Shown one piece after another: positions 8,564-29,110 of a DNA stretch of 64,000 bases. Positions within the stretch are counted from its first letter, which is position 1. The number at the start of each line of letters is the position of its first letter. The notes below the pieces were generated by a model, which ran no database searches, was not told where the DNA came from, and saw only the letters and a list, made by a program, of their open reading frames with translations. The translations under genes and the position numbers were made by a program. The DNA is from Candidatus Bathyarchaeota archaeon (GTDB lineage: Archaea > Thermoproteota > Bathyarchaeia > Bathyarchaeales > Bathycorpusculaceae): contig OY970340.1 of NCBI GenBank assembly GCA_963717465.1, forward strand, positions 896,001 through 960,000. The letters are read 5' to 3'.

Positions 8564-8785
8564 AAACGAATTCACCTCCGTTAATACTTCCAAAAACAAG
8601 TTCCTAATTTATAGAAGCCGAAATACCGCTCATAAACCTATGTGGTTGTTGCATAACAATAACATGCCCTTGCATAACAAAACCAGAGAAAGCCAACAAA
8701 TTGTTAACATTTGTTGTTGTTTACGGTTGTCCTAAGCACTTGAAAATTCGTTTTTTTAGAAAATAATTCTTTAAGAAAGATGAAG

Positions 8786-8882
8786 CGGGCCCGCTGGGAT
8801 TTGAACCCAGGATTTTCGGCTTTCTTCCGCTTAAAGAAGCGTCCGGAGGCCGACGCCTTAATCCGTACTAGACTACGAGCCC
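8786..8882 (-). tRNA. tRNA-Arg(CCG) with 21-nt intron (8822-8842) at position 37/38
   Basis: Acceptor stem GGGCTCG/CGGGCCC, anticodon stem TCGGC/GCCGA, T-loop GGTTCAAATCC; intron ACGCTTCTTTAAGCGGAAGAA forms a bulge-helix-bulge with one mismatch. Confidence 0.92.
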
Positions 8883-12072: not shown

Positions 12073-12592
12073 TTATAGATTTTTTCGGTCACTTGGCTTC
12101 CAAGTTATCTTGTGAAATAAGCATCCAACAGCTTTAGCTGAGGCAGCATCGTTTTCTGAGTCTCCAACGAAGAGGATATTTTGGGTTGGAACCTTGAGTT
12201 TTGCTATCGCCATCTTCAATTGTTCAAGTCTGCTAAGTGAAACTTCTCTGGTTATGATCGCAGCGAAGGAGAAATGGTATTTTTCAATTATGCATTTTAC
12301 GACTTTTTCGCCTTGAAGTGTGACTAGGATTTTGGGTTTGCTGGCGAAATCCTTGTAGAGGCCTGTTCCTTCTTCGTTAATTGTGATGTTTGGTATGGAG
12401 GTGACTTCTAGCTTTGTCCCATGCTTCGAAAACCTGTTTTTTGGTGGATTCATCAGCTTTAGAGACAGCTTCTGCTATTGGGTGAACTTTTTCGATATGC
12501 ATTATTGATTTCATTTGGCTCATTAATGAATCATAGTCGATTTGTAAATTCACGAGTGTTCCGTCAAGGTCAAAGATTAGAGCTTCAATCAT
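12073..12592 (-). CDS. HAD-family hydrolase (frameshift near 12400)
   Basis: IFDLDGTLV in 12377-12592 and FVGDSEND in 12073-12453. Confidence 0.8.
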
Positions 12593-13669
12593 TAAGCGTA
12601 CATTGCTCCGATGACCTTGTTGTCCTTCACTAACCGTGCGGGTGCATCCATGTGTCTTATCCAGTAAACATCAGAGGGTAAAACGTCGTACTTGTCAAGT
12701 TTTGGAATGCCTTCTTTGAATGCGAGTTTCGTGTACAAGTATGGAATGTTACTGCGGAAATCATTGAACAGTACTTTGCTTGCGTAAGAAAAGAAGAACG
12801 ATGTGGTAAACATTCTTCCAGGGTTGATCTCTGTCACGCATGGAACGCCTTTTGCGTTTTCTTTCAGGTCAACTGATGCTATTCCGTTAAATCCTGAATC
12901 AATCGCCAGGACCGCTTCGGTTGCAATTTTGTTCACGTTAGCATCGTGCACGGTTCTTTGGACTGCTGGTGTACCCGTGATTCCTGATGGCGCAAGATAG
13001 GAATAGATGTATTCAATTCGTTCCCTCGCGTTCGAAACTACCAGTTCCCCGTTCTTCCATAGGCTGTGAAAAGCGATGTTTCTTCCAGGCAAATGCTCCT
13101 GCGCGATAAACTCCCAATCAACATCACGCGAACGCCAATACTTAATCCATGACCAAGCCGTTTCAGGATTGTTTGCTGGTGTGCTTCCTTTTCCGCCTGC
13201 GCCATGTCTCGCCCTAATCCAAATTGGGCTTCCAAACTGCTCAAATGCTTTCGTAACATCCTGTTCTTTCTTAATCGCGATTATTCTTGCAACTGGAACA
13301 TTCTTTTTTTGCCAAATCACTGCTGACTCCAACTTGTCTTGGCAAGCCTTCACTGACTCTTTTAGAGGGAAGAAAAACAGTGGCCTCAAGTTTCTCCCGC
13401 TTTTCCGAAACAGCTTCCACTTCAATGTCAGGCTGTGCATGCAAAAACTCAATCCTTTGCTGACGGATAATCTCGTTCAACTTATCAATGTAACCTGCTT
13501 GGCTCGCCCGAGGCACTAAAAATTTCTCGTCAGTTGAAGCCAAATGAATAAAATGCTCGTTAGCTTCCGTGCCAACAAGAAGCATCTTTTCCGGCGCAAC
13601 ACGAAGAGACATAACAAAATTAATTCCAGCTGGACCACCAGCACCCGTACATAGAATTCTCTTCACCAA
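12592..13669 (-). CDS. ATP-grasp protein (frameshift near 13330)
   Basis: ILCTGAGGPAG N-terminus; QEHLPG, VDLK, TEINPGR ATP-grasp motifs in the second frame. Confidence 0.8.
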
Positions 13670-13813: not shown

Positions 13814-13888
13814 GGGCCGGTCGTCTAGCTTGGTTAGGACGTTGGCTTTACGAGCCAAAGGTCGCCGGTTCAAGTCCGGCTCGGCCCA
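13814..13888 (+). tRNA. tRNA-Val(TAC), integration target
   Basis: GGGCCGG/TCGGCCC acceptor, TTGGC-TTTACGA-GCCAA anticodon arm, GGTTCAAGTCC T-arm. Confidence 0.95.
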
Positions 13889-13893
13889 CTTTT
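13839..13893 (+). repeat. attL (3' part of tRNA-Val plus CTTTT)
   Basis: ACGTTGGCTTTACGAGCC-AAAGGTCGCCGGTTCAAGTCCGGCTCGGCCCACTTTT. Confidence 0.92.
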
Positions 13894-14786
13894 ACACAGA
13901 CCCGAGACATTTCGGGAAATATTGTAAAAACAATCTGGGAACTAAAAAAACAAGGCTATGCCCATTACACGCTTAAAGCATATGATTCCAGACTTAGAGG
14001 ACTAGCTAAATTTGTTAATTTAAACAAACCAGAAGAAATTAGAGAATATGTAGCAAATAAAGAAAATTGGAGCAATGCATTCAAAGAAGGCGTCATAAAA
14101 GCTTACAACCATTATGTAAACATTAATGGTCTATCGTGGGATAGACCAAAGTACAAGTGCACAAAAAACCTTCCGCATATCGCTACTACTGAGCAACTAA
14201 ATAAAATTATAGCTAATTGCAAGAGAAAATACGCCCTTATTTTGAGTATCCTAAGAGATACTGGCCTAAGACCTGTTGAACTTTATAGACTTAGACTGAA
14301 CAATGTAGATTTGGAAAAAGGCCAAATAACAACTTTTTCGGCGAAAAACGGAAATCCATGGCTCTTAAAATTAAAAATGGAAACTCTGGCAATGTTTAAG
14401 GAATATGTTATCCGGAACGATTTTGGCATGAAAGATTGCATGTTTCCAGTGCCTGAGGCAATGAGAAAGGCTTATTGCAGAACAAGATTGCATTTATCTA
14501 AAAAACTGCATGAGCCAGATTTGATGAAAATCCTCCTTTATGATTTTAGACATTATTACGCAACTATGCTTTACCAGCGAACTAAAGATATTTTATATGT
14601 CAATAGCAGCTAGGCCATAAACGATTAGAAACAACTCTTACCTACACGCATTTAATTAATTTTTCCGAGGAGGAATTTATTGCTAGAGTTGCTAAAAATA
14701 TAGAGGAGTCTTGCCAGCTAATAGAAGCAGGATTTGACTACGTAACTGAAGTTGACGGCGTAAAGATATTTAGAAAAAGGAAATGA
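13840..14786 (+). CDS. int: Tyrosine integrase, int(C) fragment starting inside att; frameshift near 14603
   Basis: Open frame from RWLYEPKVAGSSPARPT (tRNA) through DTGLRPVE and YDFRHYYAT; second frame gives QLGHKRLETTLTYTHL...IFRKRK*. Confidence 0.9.
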
Positions 14787-15649: not shown

Positions 15650-15878
15650 TATTATTATCTCTATTATATTATATTATATATGTATAATCGCGAAATTTTA
15701 TTACTTGTAGCATGTAGCCATGTAGCACATTGTGCTACAGAAACTTGTTTTAGAATTATTGTATGTAGCCTTGTAGCACACTGTAGCACAGAAACTTGTT
15801 TTTTTATTTTCTGTAGCACAGTAGCACAATTTCTTGGATACTAAACATATTTTTAAAAAATGTAGCGCAGTAGCACAA
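15650..15878. repeat. AT-rich tract followed by a GTAGC(AC) iteron-like array (putative origin)
   Basis: About 10 direct GTAGC cores plus palindrome TGTAGCACA-T-TGTGCTACA (15721-15739); CAGAAACTTGTTTT twice. Confidence 0.65.
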
Positions 15879-16064
15879 AAGAGCGAAGCTTGACGTAAAA
15901 AAGTTGAAGGATAAGAAAAGATGTCGCACGCGTGCTAGATAACAATTACTATACTCATCTACAGAGGAGCAGAAATATTTTGACCAGTTTTTTTATTAAC
16001 TTAGGGGCAACTTTAAAGTGTAAACCAAAAAACAGATATCTCGGAACATAAGACTAATTAATCA

Positions 16065-17111
16065 ATGTGCTCTCTCGCTGAGAACCCTAAATTTCCTTCG
16101 ACCCGTTTCCTTGGTAGCAAAGTAAAAATCATTGATTGGTTATGGGGCCACGTTTCAGACAGGAGATTTTCGACTGTGCTTGACGCCTTCGGGGGAACAG
16201 GTTGCTTCAGTTTTACGTCAAAGAAATACGGCAAGAGAACCTACTTTAACGACGCTTTATCTTTTAACCACGTCATAGGAACAGCCATAATTCAAAATTC
16301 AATTACAACAGTCTCTGAGAAAGAAACAGCAAAAGTGATGGTCGCCCACAAATCAGTTGAATACAAGAAATTTATAGAACAAACTTTTGCAGGAATATAT
16401 TTTACTGATGAAGAGAACAAGTGGCTTGATTTAGTTGTACAAAATATTAGCTTAGTTGAGAATAAGTACAAACAAGCTATTCTTTTTTCAGCTCTCGGTC
16501 AATCCTGCCTAATTAAAAGACCATACAATCTCTTTCACAGAAAAAATCTTTACATGCGCATGAAGAAAGTTGAGCGAACCTTCAACAATAAAAAATGCTG
16601 GGATACTCCCTTCCAGCAATATTTCTTTCGCTTTGTCAAGGAATACAACGAAGCAGTTTTTTGCAATGGCAATCAAAACCTATCCACTTGTTCGGATGTT
16701 TTTAGTTTAAATGACAATTTTGATCTTGTATACCTTGACCCTCCGTACATGTCAGGCAAAATTAGCGACGATTACCTCTCACTATATCATTTTCTCGACG
16801 GTATTACTGATTATAATTCATGGCATGAAAGGATCGATTACTCAACAAAAAACAGAAAATTAAAGTCAAACAATCAAGTTAAGCAATGGGGAAGAAAGAG
16901 TACTATAGATTCGTTGTTAGACAAGCTGATCGAGAAATTTTCCGCAAGCATAATTGTTATGTCATACCGCAATGACGGCTACCCAACTTCCGAGAGAATC
17001 ATTGAATTATTTAAGAAACATAAGGGAAAAGCTCCAGACATATATTCACTGCCTTATCAATATGCCCTAAGCAAAAAGCCTGTATCAGAACTTCTATTTA
17101 TCGCAGAGTAA
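16065..17111 (+). CDS. N6-adenine DNA methyltransferase (Dam/D12, FokI-like)
   Basis: RFLGSK, LDAFGGTG (motif I), LVYLDPPY (motif IV). Confidence 0.92.
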   Translation: MCSLAENPKFPSTRFLGSKVKIIDWLWGHVSDRRFSTVLDAFGGTGCFSFTSKKYGKRTYFNDALSFNHVIGTAIIQNSITTVSEKETAKVMVAHKSVEYKKFIEQTFAGIYFTDEENKWLDLVVQNISLVENKYKQAILFSALGQSCLIKRPYNLFHRKNLYMRMKKVERTFNNKKCWDTPFQQYFFRFVKEYNEAVFCNGNQNLSTCSDVFSLNDNFDLVYLDPPYMSGKISDDYLSLYHFLDGITDYNSWHERIDYSTKNRKLKSNNQVKQWGRKSTIDSLLDKLIEKFSASIIVMSYRNDGYPTSERIIELFKKHKGKAPDIYSLPYQYALSKKPVSELLFIAE

Positions 17112-17114
17112 ATT

Positions 17115-17885
17115 TTAGGTAATTGTTAGCACTTTTTTTACTTTATCTCTGTAGTAAGTAAGCATCCCCTTTTCAAGTACTTTAGATCTATGCCCCACAT
17201 GCATATTCTTTAACTCGGCTGGAAATGCCAATGCTAATAGTACATTAATGTAAGTCTGCGTTTGTTTATAAGAAGTAAGCCATTCATTGAATCTTCCAAT
17301 ATCATATCGAGGCGAAAACATAGTTGGCTTTGTCTGAAAGCGTCGAGGGCTTGTGTGAATAAAGCCAGAAAGAGCGCCATAAAAAGTTTTAAGGCATTGG
17401 CCATCATCGCCAAACAAAGCCTTCTTGTCAGGGCTGCATTCTTTCTCAAAAGCTTGAAAAATTCTAGCGAAATACTCGTACTTCCGACCGTAGACGTCAG
17501 TAAAACTGTACTGCGTATGCCAATTTATTTCTTTTTTCCACCATTCATATTCTACCGGATGATTAACAAAATAAACCAATCGCAAGGTCGTCTCAATACT
17601 TGACCGTAATGATGTGTTAGCATACTTGTAGAGTCCCATCATAGCAAAGCTAATTGAGACGTAGCCATCCATCCATATTTCTGGCAAAAGGTTTGTTGCT
17701 ACACTTGTTTGCCGCAGTTCATTGTTCCAAATTTCAAGACTGCCCAGCATTTCAAGCGATTCTTCAATCTCTGAATCATGCTCGCATAAAGTTTTTTTTA
17801 TATTCCTTCTTTTGAAAGCACTTAGGCTTTCATACATTCCGCGTGTTTCAGGTTTTAGTTTACTAAGAGCGAATCGTGCCATCAT
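17115..17885 (-). CDS. Hypothetical protein, HEPN-like helical domain
   Basis: ANTSLRSSIETTLRLVYF and YGALSGFIH patterns resemble HEPN-fold families. Confidence 0.5.
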   Translation of the reverse strand: MMARFALSKLKPETRGMYESLSAFKRRNIKKTLCEHDSEIEESLEMLGSLEIWNNELRQTSVATNLLPEIWMDGYVSISFAMMGLYKYANTSLRSSIETTLRLVYFVNHPVEYEWWKKEINWHTQYSFTDVYGRKYEYFARIFQAFEKECSPDKKALFGDDGQCLKTFYGALSGFIHTSPRRFQTKPTMFSPRYDIGRFNEWLTSYKQTQTYINVLLALAFPAELKNMHVGHRSKVLEKGMLTYYRDKVKKVLTIT

Positions 17886-18619
17886 ACCACCTTCATAATG
17901 CCACCGAGAGATAACATTAGATTGTCATCAATTGCTTGGTGCTGTATTTGTTGCGAGGTAAGAATATACCCATGTTTACGTGACACTTGTCTGATTATGT
18001 TTTCTATTAGAGCTATCTTTTCATCATTGGCAACTGATGTTTCTGGTAGCGAAGTTATATCTAACCCTGTCCATCCTTGCGACAATATACCATCTGAAGT
18101 TTGTTTGAAGTTGTTCCGTTCAATATCTTTTCCGTTAAGAAGTGTAGTATAAATTAAGCCAAAAGCTCGCTTATCAGTAGTGGAGTTCTTTTGCTTAACG
18201 AAACAATGCTCTATTGCAATCAGTTCTTTTTCCACCCGGCCACAATATGAGTCACAATCTTGAGATGTAAAATCAATGTTAATTAGGTCCAAGGGGAATA
18301 TTGCGTGAAGATTTCCATCGCTCTGAACTGAGTCCTCGTATCTTGTGCCACCGATTACTTGAAGCTTGTGAGGAAGTACCGTTTCGAGTCTTAATATCCG
18401 CGTAAATGAATTTGACCATGCAACTATTTTTTCATAAGTTGAGAGTTTAGAATTTACGAATCTTGATATCTCATTATAATTTAACGAGCTTGTAAGAGTT
18501 AGGATTTTCATTCCTTTATTTTTTCTCAGGCGTGGGTACAATAGTTCACCTGAGGCCGTTGCTATAGGCAACCACATATTTTCCAAGAAAGTGCTTTTTG
18601 TTTCTTGAACGGTAACCAT
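17882..18619 (-). CDS. Hypothetical protein, possible Rossmann methyltransferase-like fold
   Basis: KILTLTS..., KIVAW, FPLDLINIDF, FGLIYT strand pattern. Confidence 0.45.
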   Translation of the reverse strand: MVTVQETKSTFLENMWLPIATASGELLYPRLRKNKGMKILTLTSSLNYNEISRFVNSKLSTYEKIVAWSNSFTRILRLETVLPHKLQVIGGTRYEDSVQSDGNLHAIFPLDLINIDFTSQDCDSYCGRVEKELIAIEHCFVKQKNSTTDKRAFGLIYTTLLNGKDIERNNFKQTSDGILSQGWTGLDITSLPETSVANDEKIALIENIIRQVSRKHGYILTSQQIQHQAIDDNLMLSLGGIMKVV

Positions 18620-18630
18620 TCAGGTCATTC

Positions 18631-20316
18631 TCACTCAACGAAAACTTCGGTTAACAATTTCTCGAGTTTGCCGAGCAAAACGTTCCCGTTAGGTTCACTT
18701 TTCAGGACCAACGCAAGTCCAAGCGCAAGTTGCTTGACAGCCCTGTTGCTTAATGCACTCTTAAACAAAGGATGGTTCTGGTTGTATTGCACTATATGGC
18801 CGTCTTCTGATAATCTGCAAATACTGGGTGGTTTATTACAATTCCATTCAGAATATTCTACATTAAAAGTTTGACCAAGTACATTTATGGTTTCGAAAAA
18901 TGCAGGATGATCTTGATAAATTACAACATCCTTCTTATTATCAGCAACTTCTATTGGGGGTTTATCTTGAGCGACTGTACCGCTGACTATCCTCACATTC
19001 ATGCCTTTATCGCTTGAAAGTAAGTCCATAAGCCGCGAAGCCGGTGATTTTGGATTTACGCGTCGACGCTTGCTTTTTGAAATAGAGCTTTGGGAAATTC
19101 GCAGCCTCTCTTTTGGGAATTGAATTATGTCGGCGTTTTGAAGTTCTTGAACAACACGCTCGCTTCCCAAAGTCTCTGAGAGGCCTTCATATAAGTCCTT
19201 ATCTTGCGCAGACTTACTCTCAAGGAAATCATTCCATTTTATGAGTTGCCTCCTAAAGAAGGAATCAAAATTGGACACGTCGTTAGTATAGGAAAAACTA
19301 TCTCTGTCAATCATAAGGTAATTCGCAAGTCCTTCAACTATGTGAACTTCGCCGCAAAGGTAATTCAACTTTCCCGCAACTTTTCCTGTTAGCTCACCAA
19401 CATCAAAATCTTTTGGCATTCCTATGCCAACGTTTCGCAGTCTGATCTGCAAGCCCTTCATCTCAATTGGACGAACTGGAGAAAATGGCGTCATAATTAC
19501 ATATTTTACTTTAATATCTCCGAATCCAGTCTCTCCTTTGTCCAAGATCCTTGCGCCAGAGGGAACATTTCGGAATAGCTCTTCCCCATCCAACCAAACT
19601 CTTAAGGGCACCCTACCTGAAACTGCAAAGAAATCACTCAACTCATGTTGATCTTGAGGATATTCGAGAGGACAATACTGTTGCAATGTCCATTTGAATT
19701 TTTCAAAACCGCTAAGCTTTTCTATTGAAACCGAAAGGCTCCGTTCTTCTTTGCGTAGGTCATTAATAACGTGAGGTTTTAATTGGTCAAGTATAATTAT
19801 CGTTTCGCCCTGTTCATAGGGAAGGTCACTTATCGTTGTAGTGTAAGGAAATTTTGCCTCTTCCATTTCCTTTTCCAAGATAAAAGTTTCCCCTTTAAAA
19901 AATCGACCTGCGTGGATATTTAACTCAACTGTTCTATCACTCTTCCGTTTCTTGGTTATAACAGTTAACTTTTCACAGTACGGAAAAACCGAGATTGATC
20001 CAATTCCAAAAGTGCCGACTCTTTTACGACCTAACTCATCAATATTTTCATCAAGTGGTGTAGGAAAACCAACTGCCATAAACTTTTCTTGAAGTTCCTC
20101 TATACCCATGCCTATTCCGTTATCTCTAACAATAAGTCGATTGTTTAGCAGGTCAAGCCTCATTTTCACTTCAGTGGCTTTGGCGTCATAGGCGTTAGAA
20201 ACAAGTTCTTTTACTGCCCGTCCAAAATTTCGGTATAATCCAGCGCTAAAATAACTAATAATCTCTCTATGGACACGCATCGTTATTGTCCCATGACCGA
20301 CAATGTTCTTGGACAT
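18631..20316 (-). CDS. GHKL (MORC/HATPase_c_3-type) ATPase
   Basis: KELVSNAYDA, DNGIGM, GTFGIG, GETII Bergerat motifs; GEVHI and IDRDSF in the following domain. Confidence 0.88.
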   Translation of the reverse strand: MSKNIVGHGTITMRVHREIISYFSAGLYRNFGRAVKELVSNAYDAKATEVKMRLDLLNNRLIVRDNGIGMGIEELQEKFMAVGFPTPLDENIDELGRKRVGTFGIGSISVFPYCEKLTVITKKRKSDRTVELNIHAGRFFKGETFILEKEMEEAKFPYTTTISDLPYEQGETIIILDQLKPHVINDLRKEERSLSVSIEKLSGFEKFKWTLQQYCPLEYPQDQHELSDFFAVSGRVPLRVWLDGEELFRNVPSGARILDKGETGFGDIKVKYVIMTPFSPVRPIEMKGLQIRLRNVGIGMPKDFDVGELTGKVAGKLNYLCGEVHIVEGLANYLMIDRDSFSYTNDVSNFDSFFRRQLIKWNDFLESKSAQDKDLYEGLSETLGSERVVQELQNADIIQFPKERLRISQSSISKSKRRRVNPKSPASRLMDLLSSDKGMNVRIVSGTVAQDKPPIEVADNKKDVVIYQDHPAFFETINVLGQTFNVEYSEWNCNKPPSICRLSEDGHIVQYNQNHPLFKSALSNRAVKQLALGLALVLKSEPNGNVLLGKLEKLLTEVFVE

Positions 20317-20500: not shown

Positions 20501-20830
20501 TTATTTCCGTTTGCAGGGACCGGGAGGCAGGTTGATATAAAATGGAAAATCAAAAAAATAAATCAAAACGTTGGCTTTACGAGCCTGAGCGAAGCGAAGT
20601 CCTGAAGCGTAGCGGAAGGACAAAGGTCGCCGGTTCAAGTCCGGCTCGGCCCACTTTTCATTATTTTTGATTTCCAATTTACCGATATTTTGCGGAGACA
20701 TCAGTGAATTACCATTCAATAAGTGTTTTAAGTGGTTTTCAAACGTTTTACTCAAATTAAATCCTAATTCTTTTGATTTTTCGACTAATTCTTTGTCTAA
20801 GTATAATACGACATTGCCCTTAGCTGGCAT
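20501..20830 (-). CDS. CcdA/VapB-like RHH antitoxin-type protein; tail runs through attR
   Basis: VVLYLDKELVEKSKELGFNLSKTFENHL. Confidence 0.6.
   Translation of the reverse strand: MPAKGNVVLYLDKELVEKSKELGFNLSKTFENHLKHLLNGNSLMSPQNIGKLEIKNNEKWAEPDLNRRPLSFRYASGLRFAQARKANVLIYFFDFPFYINLPPGPCKRK
20542..20670 (+). CDS. int(N) fragment: start of the integrase, reading into attR
   Basis: GGAGG/AGGT SD-like sequence upstream; MENQKNKSK-RWLYEP...KVAGSSPARPTF reads att in the same frame as int(C). Confidence 0.75.
   Translation: MENQKNKSKRWLYEPERSEVLKRSGRTKVAGSSPARPTFHYF
20568..20658 (+). repeat. attR with 36-nt hairpin insertion (20586-20621)
   Basis: Identical to attL apart from the insert. Confidence 0.9.
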
Positions 20831-21195
20831 TTGCATTCGCATCCGAGGGCATGCGAAGAGAAGTTGTATGTTATATGTTTGTTCATTACTTTAGAGATTG
20901 ATCAATAGAGATGAGGGCACCCTATACTAGAAATTTATTATTATCTATTGATTATTTGGCGAGTAAAGTCGTGTACGCTATAAAAACATGTTTCCTTGCA
21001 ACACAAGAGTTCCGTAATCTGCATAGTCCTTTCCCGCAATCAATCAATTTTATAACTCTAAAATCTACATGTCCATTAGTTTGTAGTAAAACTAAAAAGA
21101 GTTAAGAACAATAACAATCAATTATGCAAGCTCGTTGTGGAACCTTAAACGCGCTCGGTCATTAAGCAAAAATAATAATTAACGGTAAAAGAAAA

Positions 21196-22836: not shown

Positions 22837-23404
22837 CTTACTTATTAAACGTACGAGTGTAATTATTTTTTAATGCTCGCACTATTGTCTAACTGTATCA
22901 CCTGCTATTACAAGCAGTACCAGCGCAGTAATTTTTTAATATTAAAATTTAATGCTTAATCCTTTAAGAATAACTCAATGGGTAATGACTAACTAATAAA
23001 AGAGAACTTTTTAAGTTAATTTTACACTCATTTCCTAATTTATTAATTCACCATTTTTGTGATTTTACCTGAATTTTCTAAATTTCTAATTTCTAAATCG
23101 GTAAAGAAATAAAAAATTTAGAAGGCTCTTATCCCTTTGTGGGAAGGCAATTAATTTTCTAAAAAATATTTAATTTTATAAATTATAAATAGAAAAAAAA
23201 TGGCAATACGTAATGATTTACTGTACATTCATTTCTTAACTCTCCAAAAAGCAAAAAAACTGAAATAGCTTGAATTTACCAACTTTCAATATTGTTGCTT
23301 TCTGCCTACTTACCCTTTATTCTGTTGGTTCAGAAGGAAAAAGCAAAAAAAAGAGCTGATTTAACGAAAAAATAGGGGAGCGTTGTGGTTCCGGTCTGTT
23401 CATT

Positions 23405-25907: not shown

Positions 25908-26310
25908 AAGTCTAGCTGTTGAGATAGTTTTCCGTAAAGCGCATATTTATCAACCTACTATTAGTTTAAGAAAAGTGCATCTGACACTGCATTCATTTCT
26001 TTATTTGTTCGTTTACTAAGAAATAAGCCAAAATTTCTTTTTTTCTAAATTCTAAATCGGGTAAGAAATAAAAATTAATTAAGCCATATTGTCACATTGT
26101 GATAATGGAAAATTAATTTCTATAAATTATAAATAGAAATCTCGAGCCGGCAATAAGCCAAAAGAATCATCGAGTTTGCGCCACTATAGTCATTTCTGTG
26201 CTTTTTTGTGATAAAATTCGGTTTATTGCTCTGCAACCAGGTTAACGCTAATCTGATTGAAAAAGCTTTTATCCACAGACGTACAAGGCAATTTATTGAG
26301 GAAAAATCAA

Positions 26311-26991: not shown

Positions 26992-27132
26992 AATCCAATT
27001 TTTTTTTCTATGCGCGTTTAATCTTACATTCATTTCATAATCTGTTGATTTACCATTTTTCCAATTTTACATCGAATTTTCTAAACGTTTTTTCGTTTGC
27101 CTTAAATAGGAAGGAGACTTACACACAAGAAT

Positions 27133-28669: not shown

Positions 28670-29110
28670 ATGCAAATACTACGAAAAAAAGTAAAGGACT
28701 TTTCTAGTTCAAGTCCAACCACAGCGGCGCCATCAGCAGAAGAAACCCTGCAGCAACCTTCACAAGCACCAACCAGTGAGCCAGCATTAGAAACAACTGC
28801 ACTTCAGCAAGCCCTAAAAGACCAAATACTAACTCAATTAAATCAAATCTCAGAAACTTCAAGCAGAATCAAGGTCTTAGAGGCACAACTTGAATCAGAG
28901 AAAGAAAACTTATCCAAAGACCTAATCACCTTAAGACAAACATTTGCAGAACAACAAAAAGAAGTAAAAAGCTACTTCTGCAATGTAACTGCAGAAATTA
29001 AGAAACTAGACGCTGTCCTAACCGACAAAGAAATAATGAATAACAAAAATGAACAAAACCGTCCCAATAGGCGTTCACGTAACTCGCGCTCACGCAAAGG
29101 GAAGTCCTGA
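28670..29110 (+). CDS. Hypothetical coiled-coil protein
   Basis: 146-aa ORF, Q/E/L heptads. Confidence 0.5.
   Translation: MQILRKKVKDFSSSSPTTAAPSAEETLQQPSQAPTSEPALETTALQQALKDQILTQLNQISETSSRIKVLEAQLESEKENLSKDLITLRQTFAEQQKEVKSYFCNVTAEIKKLDAVLTDKEIMNNKNEQNRPNRRSRNSRSRKGKS

Follow-up and report, generated by a model that had tools for sequence, protein, structure and literature searches.

In a 64,000-nucleotide stretch of the genome of a Candidatus Bathyarchaeota archaeon (assembly GCA_963717465.1, contig OY970340.1, positions 896,001 to 960,000; hereafter the window), four adjacent genes carried by a tRNA-integrated element were found to constitute a fixed mobile cassette, which is sporadically distributed in archaea and bacteria. 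The cassette encodes a GHKL ATPase (gene 1), a protein with a predicted methyltransferase fold (gene 2), an all-helical and probably HEPN-like protein (gene 3) and a putative D12-class adenine DNA methylase (gene 4), and it looks like an unnamed immune system of the restriction-modification (R-M) type without a recognisable DNA-cutting enzyme. A defence role of some kind is likely, and the specific reading favoured in the current work, with a probability of about 0.5, is that of a four-gene, modification-gated defence cassette in which unmarked DNA is detected and an HEPN-like RNase is released in response.

The initial annotation of this locus had described three tightly coupled minus-strand genes, interpreted as a sensor/adaptor/effector module, within a tRNA-integrated element. 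Both the coordinates and the spacing of the open reading frames (ORFs) agree with such coupling (Table 1), gene 1 being separated from gene 2 by 11 nucleotides (nt) and genes 2 and 3 sharing an ATGA overlap, while the integrated nature of the element is borne out by a tRNA-Val gene, a 38-nt exact repeat and a tyrosine-integrase fragment. The three genes are real, yet the unit as first drawn was incomplete, since it omitted the D12 adenine methylase gene (gene 4), the stop of which is positioned 3 nt away from gene 3 on the opposite strand. The proposed module survives as a set of conserved and linked genes, but, because it is tied to a DNA methylase, the cassette is R-M-like rather than a free-standing trio. 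A promoter and terminator scan of the locus returned signal at chance level only.

Table 1 Features of the cassette and of the integrated element, in window coordinates (aa, amino acids)
Feature	Position	Strand	Remarks
Gene 1, GHKL (paraMORC-like) ATPase, S5-type middle domain	18631..20316	-	561 aa
Gene 2, predicted class I (Rossmann) methyltransferase-fold protein without glycine loop	17882..18619	-	245 aa
Gene 3, all-helical, probably HEPN-like (DUF5677/DUF6988-related)	17115..17885	-	256 aa
Gene 4, predicted D12-class N6-adenine DNA methyltransferase, convergent with gene 3	16065..17111	+	348 aa
tRNA-Val(TAC), integration target	13814..13889	+	attL about 13839-13893
attR, repeat of tRNA 3' part with 36-nt insert	20568..20658	+	overlaps split-integrase 5' piece
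Tyrosine integrase 3' piece, att-split	13867..14613	+	PF00589 E 8.6e-9, profile positions 29-147 of 172
Small ORF 5' of gene 1, CcdA-like (ribbon-helix-helix type), crossing attR	20501..20842	-	PF07362 E 1.1e-4

The co-occurrence of the three genes elsewhere, on which the first interpretation depended, was observed in metagenomes and genomes alike. A scan of metagenomes with gene 2 yielded 23 loci (denoted by L and a number, with L004/L023 and L021/L022 representing near duplicates), and wherever sufficient flanking sequence was present gene 1 preceded gene 2 (17/17), gene 3 followed (21/21) and the methylase gene came after gene 3 (12/12), the loci outside these counts ending at contig edges. 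The corresponding scan of genomes with gene 1 produced 72 loci, and the family profile scores 19 of them at more than 500 bits. Three of the 19 are truncated by a contig end; all four genes are present in each of the remaining loci (16 of 16), where they are co-directional in 14 cases and include a methylase on the other strand in two. According to record titles, the cassettes occur in Aenigm-, Micr-, Woese- and Thorarchaeota as well as in Dehalococcoidia, Planctomycetota, Omnitrophica, Gemmatimonadota and Desulfobacteraceae, and a quick tree of gene 1 shows archaea and bacteria intermixed. A DUF2095 match points to an archaeal host. Gene 2 was found in 0/400 other genomes of the host phylum, and the DNA matches listed for 30 related genomes span the flank, the tRNA/attachment (att) region and short integrase pieces, with the cassette not among them. 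Gene 3 had no match among 72,556 plasmid records, and neither gene 3 nor two queries resembling the PP_RS20740 family (see below) had a match in plasmids or phages; in viral contigs no relatives of gene 2 were detected, gene 3 gave a single 26-residue match and the ATPase gave only distant matches (42 loci).

When 174 ORFs flanking 24 loci were compared, a fifth conserved gene was not found, and the flanking cluster shared most widely (6 of 24 loci) is composed of unrelated methylases. Of 19 ORFs picked by hand from the flanks of four-gene loci, 14 matched R-M or Tiamat models, and integrases, recognised by translation, are located nearby in L015, L033 and L034. Two divergent four-gene cassettes (L044 and L046) are present in one Thorarchaeota assembly. 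Another variant is represented by L045 (624-4551), which lacks genes 2 and 3 but encodes an ABC ATPase of AriA/AbiL-like type next to a D12 methylase and a sister GHKL ATPase.

Gene 1 is, as initially recognised, a GHKL ATPase: it matches HATPase_c_3 (PF13589) over the cut-off (E 3.8e-16) and displays the Bergerat motifs ExxxN, DxGxG, GxxGxG and T. Across 25 aligned sequences E37, N41, D65-G67-G69, G101-G104-G106, K316 and R338-D339 are invariant, and T172 is retained in 24 of 25. Library matches are confined to the first 180 residues, the best in NCBIfam being BbrUII/HgiDII (NF050001; 76.8 bits versus a cut-off of 550, residues 12-182), with MzaB, TmtA and MutL weaker, and no nuclease motif was recognisable in the C-terminal 190 residues. 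The peptides VIYQDHPAF and VQYNQNHPLF, previously taken as a duplicated C-terminal motif, are present, although the duplication itself is suggestive only, given that profile self-comparison of the 'strand-N/H-P-F' repeat (19 columns) produced an E value of 9e-4 versus 5e-3 for the best of seven control segments.

For gene 2, the initial annotation had noted a Rossmann, methyltransferase-like pattern devoid of a clear glycine-rich loop, and both observations hold. Its predicted model, with a predicted local distance difference test score (pLDDT) of 95.9, places the protein in the class I, Rossmann-type seven-strand methyltransferase fold, as judged from the comparison with Trm1 (3axt; Z 14.3, root-mean-square deviation (rmsd) 3.4, 190 residues aligned), from 418 chains at Z >= 8 and from a Foldseek E value of 5e-6. 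The motif I region reads L/F-T-L-T-N/S/D, such that both the glycine-rich motif and the acidic motif II residue are missing, and W68 is found at the end of strand 2 in 60 of 66 rows. Between 55 and 66 of the 66 rows retain residues K8, W16, E50, R77, N114, D116, Q120, E132 and T158, and the pocket is therefore under selection. Gene 2 is probably a non-methylating, methyltransferase-fold partner. Profile comparison (hhalign; 99.2%, E 2e-19) confirmed that it is a distant homologue of the PP_RS20740 family (NF047698 / PF28273), to which no known function is assigned in the consulted part of PMC9630843. The first Atlas match scored 0.97, with PF28273 on 18% of its members, whereas NF047698 (cut-off 200) did not match the window gene and matched two relatives at 24-25 bits (E about 1e-5). 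For gene 2, approximately 78 clusters at 50% identity were obtained with E <= 1e-10.

The predicted model of gene 3 is all-helical (pLDDT 89.6), and in a wide structure search four of the six best-scoring VIA rows carried HEPN titles, at Z 7.8-8.6 (2hsb, Z 8.6, rmsd 3.5, 123 aligned; 3o10, 8.2; 1wol, 8.0; 4nqf, 7.8), with unrelated bundles reaching up to 7.0 and with LsoA (Z 6.8), RnlA (Z 6.4) and AbiA lower in the list. Six of the 22 members matched DUF5677, weakly and with E values no better than 2e-4, and the Atlas returned DUF6988 and DUF5677 clusters; a sequence search of solved structures gave no match. An HEPN-like fold, proposed from the outset, is probable from these structural comparisons, while the Rx4-6H arginine expected of an HEPN RNase is absent. 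Residues K87, R94, E98, H109, E112, S173 and H177 are invariant (H177 in 25/25), and the first five could supply an alternative site; HEPN families that use alternative basic residues are described in the consulted part of PMC3710099. Because the catalytic arginine is absent RNase activity is not assured, and we rate it slightly above even. No longer, fused form of gene 3 was encountered among 8000 candidates, which constitutes weak evidence.

Gene 4 is identified from its sequence as a D12-class N6-adenine DNA methyltransferase, based on PF02086 (E 2.2e-12, 47.7 bits versus a cut-off of 22), the PADLOC model MTase_II (E 8.5e-55) and the intact motifs FGGTG (motif I) and DPPY, the latter being retained in the window copy and in 22 of 25 rows. 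In 4 of 7 plasmid regions examined, relatives of gene 4 adjoin type II restriction enzymes. One-strand-only methylation had been considered, as the best PADLOC match covers only the latter half of a model 643 positions long, and was dropped as unnecessary because solo relatives of gene 4 sit beside DpnII-family enzymes. Rank correlations of pairwise identities are lower between gene 4 and genes 1-3 (0.51-0.60) than among the latter (0.75-0.85), which suggests that methylases have been swapped. The three opposite-strand methylases (that of the window and those of L043 and L046) all lack a 7-residue insertion present in the co-directional ones. Two Rhizobium plasmids (L099 4905-10135 and L101 4917-9314) carry a gene 4-like methylase together with a hypothetical gene, a beta-RFAP synthase family (kinase-like) gene and a non-canonical purine nucleoside triphosphate (NTP) pyrophosphatase gene, an operon that may be regarded as a further defence candidate in its own right, linked to nucleotides.

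The pairing of a GHKL ATPase with a methyltransferase-fold protein extends beyond the four-gene cassette. Among the more distant GHKL loci, 51 have an ORF, and in 26 of these a PP_RS20740-like gene is located directly 3' of the GHKL gene. DndC or a methylase of the C5 or N4/N6 type is encoded within 3 kb in 23 of these 26 paired loci, as compared to 1/25 other GHKL loci and 7/339 host windows, a count that is favoured because queries and profile came from the same loci. Two of the three exceptions are cut by contig ends, and the third (L088) possesses dndDE. A subset of these annotations was confirmed by Pfam and NCBIfam, and the sole PP_RS20740 member over cut-off in 401 genomes has, as read from translation, a GHKL gene on one side and a C5 methylase on the other; NF047698 was matched in 0/301 genomes of one further phylum. 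Subclades of a fast tree track the type of mark, a pattern that does not demonstrate co-evolution because kin share labels, and the C5 methylases of this set have Vsr or HhH-GPD repair genes beside them, as is the case in ordinary R-M loci. Four loci (L079, L080, L082 and L084) have an overlap between the GHKL gene and a DndC-like gene that stands alone, since neither dndD nor dndE was seen over about 3.5 kb on the upstream side and 5 kb on the downstream side, and at L070 and L088 the GHKL/PP_RS20740-like pair is embedded beside a dnd cluster.

In the favoured model, gene 4 would methylate adenine in a short motif and thereby mark the host chromosome as self, the marking of DNA being an established function of D12-class methylases. 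Genes 1-3 would take the place of the restriction enzyme; their position is the one that a type II enzyme holds beside the plasmid relatives of gene 4. GHKL proteins behave as ATP-driven dimeric clamps, and the clamp formed by gene 1 would, with gene 2 as its partner, detect DNA without the mark. Gene 3 would then be switched on and would most likely cut host RNA, thus halting the infected cell, by analogy with PrrC beside its R-M system. Both PrrC and the paraMORC-Ymh HEPN fusions found in R-M neighbourhoods serve as precedent, according to the consulted part of PMC3710099.

A number of observations weigh against this model. Gene 2 has no obvious target-recognition domain, and the methylases of L043 (11216-12325) and L046 (665-1774) carry DPPS in place of DPPY. 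The best Z score of gene 3 (8.6) is within the range that helical bundles attain by common arrangement, Foldseek found nothing in the PDB at E <= 0.001 with this protein, and no conserved arginine occurs at positions 170-172 in 25 rows. As regards the wider set, five of the modifier matches are self-hits, with queries taken from the same loci, and the four-gene ATPases do not group with the wider-set ATPases in a fast tree. Furthermore, the 26 wider loci contain no conserved HEPN-like or nuclease gene, and the ATPase and methyltransferase-fold pair can therefore apparently do without such a gene; this functioning of the wider set without gene 3 is the main fact that the favoured model leaves unexplained.

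A broader reading is also proposed, tentatively. The GHKL ATPase and the methyltransferase-fold protein may form a general, nuclease-free reader module that replaces a restriction enzyme and is paired with at least four DNA marks, i.e. N6-methyladenine (m6A), 5-methylcytosine (5mC), N4/N6 methylation and phosphorothioate or DndC-like modification. Under the same tentative reading, unmarked DNA would be answered by a methyltransferase-fold chemistry not yet described, and the four-gene branch would have recruited an arginine-less HEPN-like effector.

Direct restriction is considered unlikely; here the products of genes 1-3 would together act as an ATP-dependent enzyme, unmethylated DNA would be cut or blocked through a non-canonical site in gene 3 or gene 2, and the cell would survive. 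It would agree with the best NCBIfam match of gene 1, with the Vsr/HhH-GPD genes beside the wider-set C5 methylases, with the missing RNase arginine of gene 3 and with the example of R.HgiDII, a GHKL restriction enzyme whose C-terminal domain has no assigned fold in the consulted part of PMC2441816. However, family searches with genes 1-3 and structure searches with genes 2 and 3 revealed no nuclease match, and the HEPN domains characterised so far target RNA, as stated in the portion of PMC3710099 consulted. An unrecognised restriction active site within genes 1-3 is possible; neither a known nuclease family or fold nor a fifth gene conserved across loci was found.

Somewhat less probable is an arrangement in which the mark serves as a danger signal: a virus degrades the host chromosome and the m6-dAMP thus freed binds the remodelled pocket of gene 2 to turn on the effector, as in PUA-Cal-HAD, the precedent set out in the consulted part of bioRxiv 10.64898/2026.01.15.699771. 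The retention by gene 2 of K8, W16, W68, N114, D116 and Q120 would suit such a ligand, as would the nucleotide-linked operon of the two Rhizobium plasmids, but the marks found with homologous methyltransferase-fold partners differ in their chemistry (C5, N4/N6 and phosphorothioate) and a GHKL+S5 clamp generally suggests a polymer or protein substrate.

Gene 2 as an active S-adenosylmethionine (SAM)-dependent enzyme, which would be the effector of the wider three-gene form and which in the four-gene form would modify gene 3 or DNA so as to restrain a toxin, is improbable: the glycine-rich loop is absent, W68 and T/N69 occupy the expected acidic SAM-binding position in the four-gene family and identity to solved methyltransferases is 4-16%, despite an invariant N-x-D after strand 4 and a K and W in the first helix in both sets, an acidic residue after strand 2 in many wider-set members and the lack of any other effector candidate in the wider set. 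Equally improbable is an addiction or maintenance module of mobile elements without an antiviral role, in which methylase loss frees a toxin, for although the cassette resides in an integrated element here and near integrases at three other loci, defence-island neighbours are frequent and gene 3 is matchless in plasmid records; addiction and defence are, moreover, compatible rather than mutually exclusive.

The element that carries the cassette measures 6.8 kb and is situated between tRNA-Val and an exact repeat of the 3' part of this tRNA, the 38-nt repeat being located at 13856-13893 and 20621-20658. The open frame of the integrase 3' piece begins inside the tRNA and its stop precedes the end of the family profile. 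A plus-strand ORF from 20542 traverses attR and shares its reading frame with the integrase piece at 13867, an att-split layout which we take to be of the SSV type. The attR sequence consists of 55 nt of the tRNA-Val gene (13839-13893) plus a 36-nt in-frame insert past the anticodon arm, which may be a tRNA intron retained from an earlier host. The integrase frame ends early (14611-14613), and HAD-like and ATP-grasp genes (12073-12592 and 12592-13669) each seem split into two ORFs; these interruptions may be assembly indels and not true decay. Short imperfect direct repeats (TGTAGCAC-like, units of 29-47 nt) occupy 15700-15880, between small ORFs and the methylase, and possibly represent a replication origin of the element or a protein-binding array. 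Elsewhere in the window, dispersed AT-rich repeats are found upstream of several genes (23016-23239, 25988-26139, 27018-27079 and 29020-29041), possibly as a common regulatory element, and a tRNA-like gene at 8785-8882 received an unassigned, four-base anticodon call.

To our knowledge, few prokaryotic MORC-like ATPases have been tested so far, and their R-M role becomes directly testable here because the cassette is compact, with a fixed gene set, intact motifs and neither helicase nor nuclease. The cassette also provides context for the uncharacterised PP_RS20740 family, and it may account for certain dnd clusters and methylases which seem orphan because no nuclease adjoins them. If true, the reader-module reading would add a new class to modification-dependent immunity and offer a simple model, in prokaryotes, of MORC ATPases reading DNA marks. 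An involvement of prokaryotic MORC-like ATPases in R-M has been predicted since 2008 (Iyer, Abhiman and Aravind; PMC2292703, consulted in part).

With respect to named systems, the absence of a match asserted initially holds for genes 2 and 3, for which PADLOC gave no match at E <= 1 and no model fits. The combination of a GHKL ATPase and an HEPN domain beside R-M genes has been published before as a theme (PMC3710099, in the part consulted). A literature search that left most subscription papers, REBASE and DefenseFinder outside its scope did not find the cassette described, and the terms 'GHKL' and 'MORC' are absent from the main text of a Dnd survey (PMC10853773) and a BREX survey (PMC12839542). 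GrwAB was ruled out as a name, since the consulted part of PMC12137116 presents it as a DUF262/HNH system.

Several known systems share one or more elements with the cassette; literature comparisons in this paragraph and the next refer to the consulted parts of the sources cited. The families that gene 3 weakly resembles include protein 3 of DS-15 (DUF6988) and DitA of Aditi (DUF5677), a likeness by family label (DefensePredictor; PMC13092281), but the partners differ, DS-15 having a MinD-type ATPase and neither system a GHKL protein or methylase. Mza, Tiamat and VcSduA have only the N-terminal GHKL domain in common with gene 1, the matches of which are limited to residues of about 20-135 and do not qualify it as a member of Mza, Tiamat or Shedu I-D; unlike gene 1, Tiamat and VcSduA carry PD-(D/E)xK nucleases. 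Compared with the PP_RS20740 family, gene 2 is about 100-150 aa shorter, scores far under the cut-off and has an HEPN-like gene next to it.

Closer likenesses are found among R-M-linked systems. In BbrUII/HgiDII (NF050001; PMC2441816) the R component of a type II R-M pair is likewise a GHKL ATPase, but these enzymes are single proteins of about 660 aa, with gene 1 far below their cut-off. The paraMORC-Ymh HEPN fusions and PrrC/RloC (PMC3710099) combine an NTPase and HEPN beside R-M genes, where they are proposed to act as a back-up RNase; in the cassette, by contrast, the HEPN-like protein is encoded by a separate gene, is DUF5677-like and not Ymh, is without Rx4-6H and has no restriction nuclease to back up. 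Prokaryotic MORC/paraMORC R-M operons (PMC2292703) resemble the cassette in their GHKL+S5 ATPase, their sporadic lateral spread and their linkage to DNA methylase and Vsr genes; subfamilies paraMORC1-5 are set apart by C-terminal domains or motifs of their own. These operons mostly involve SF2 helicases and nucleases, whereas the cassette has neither, and its methyltransferase-fold partner and separate HEPN-like gene are unmentioned for them. Alongside these systems the cassette is a real, intact and unnamed variant of R-M-linked GHKL defence, with a predicted defence role.

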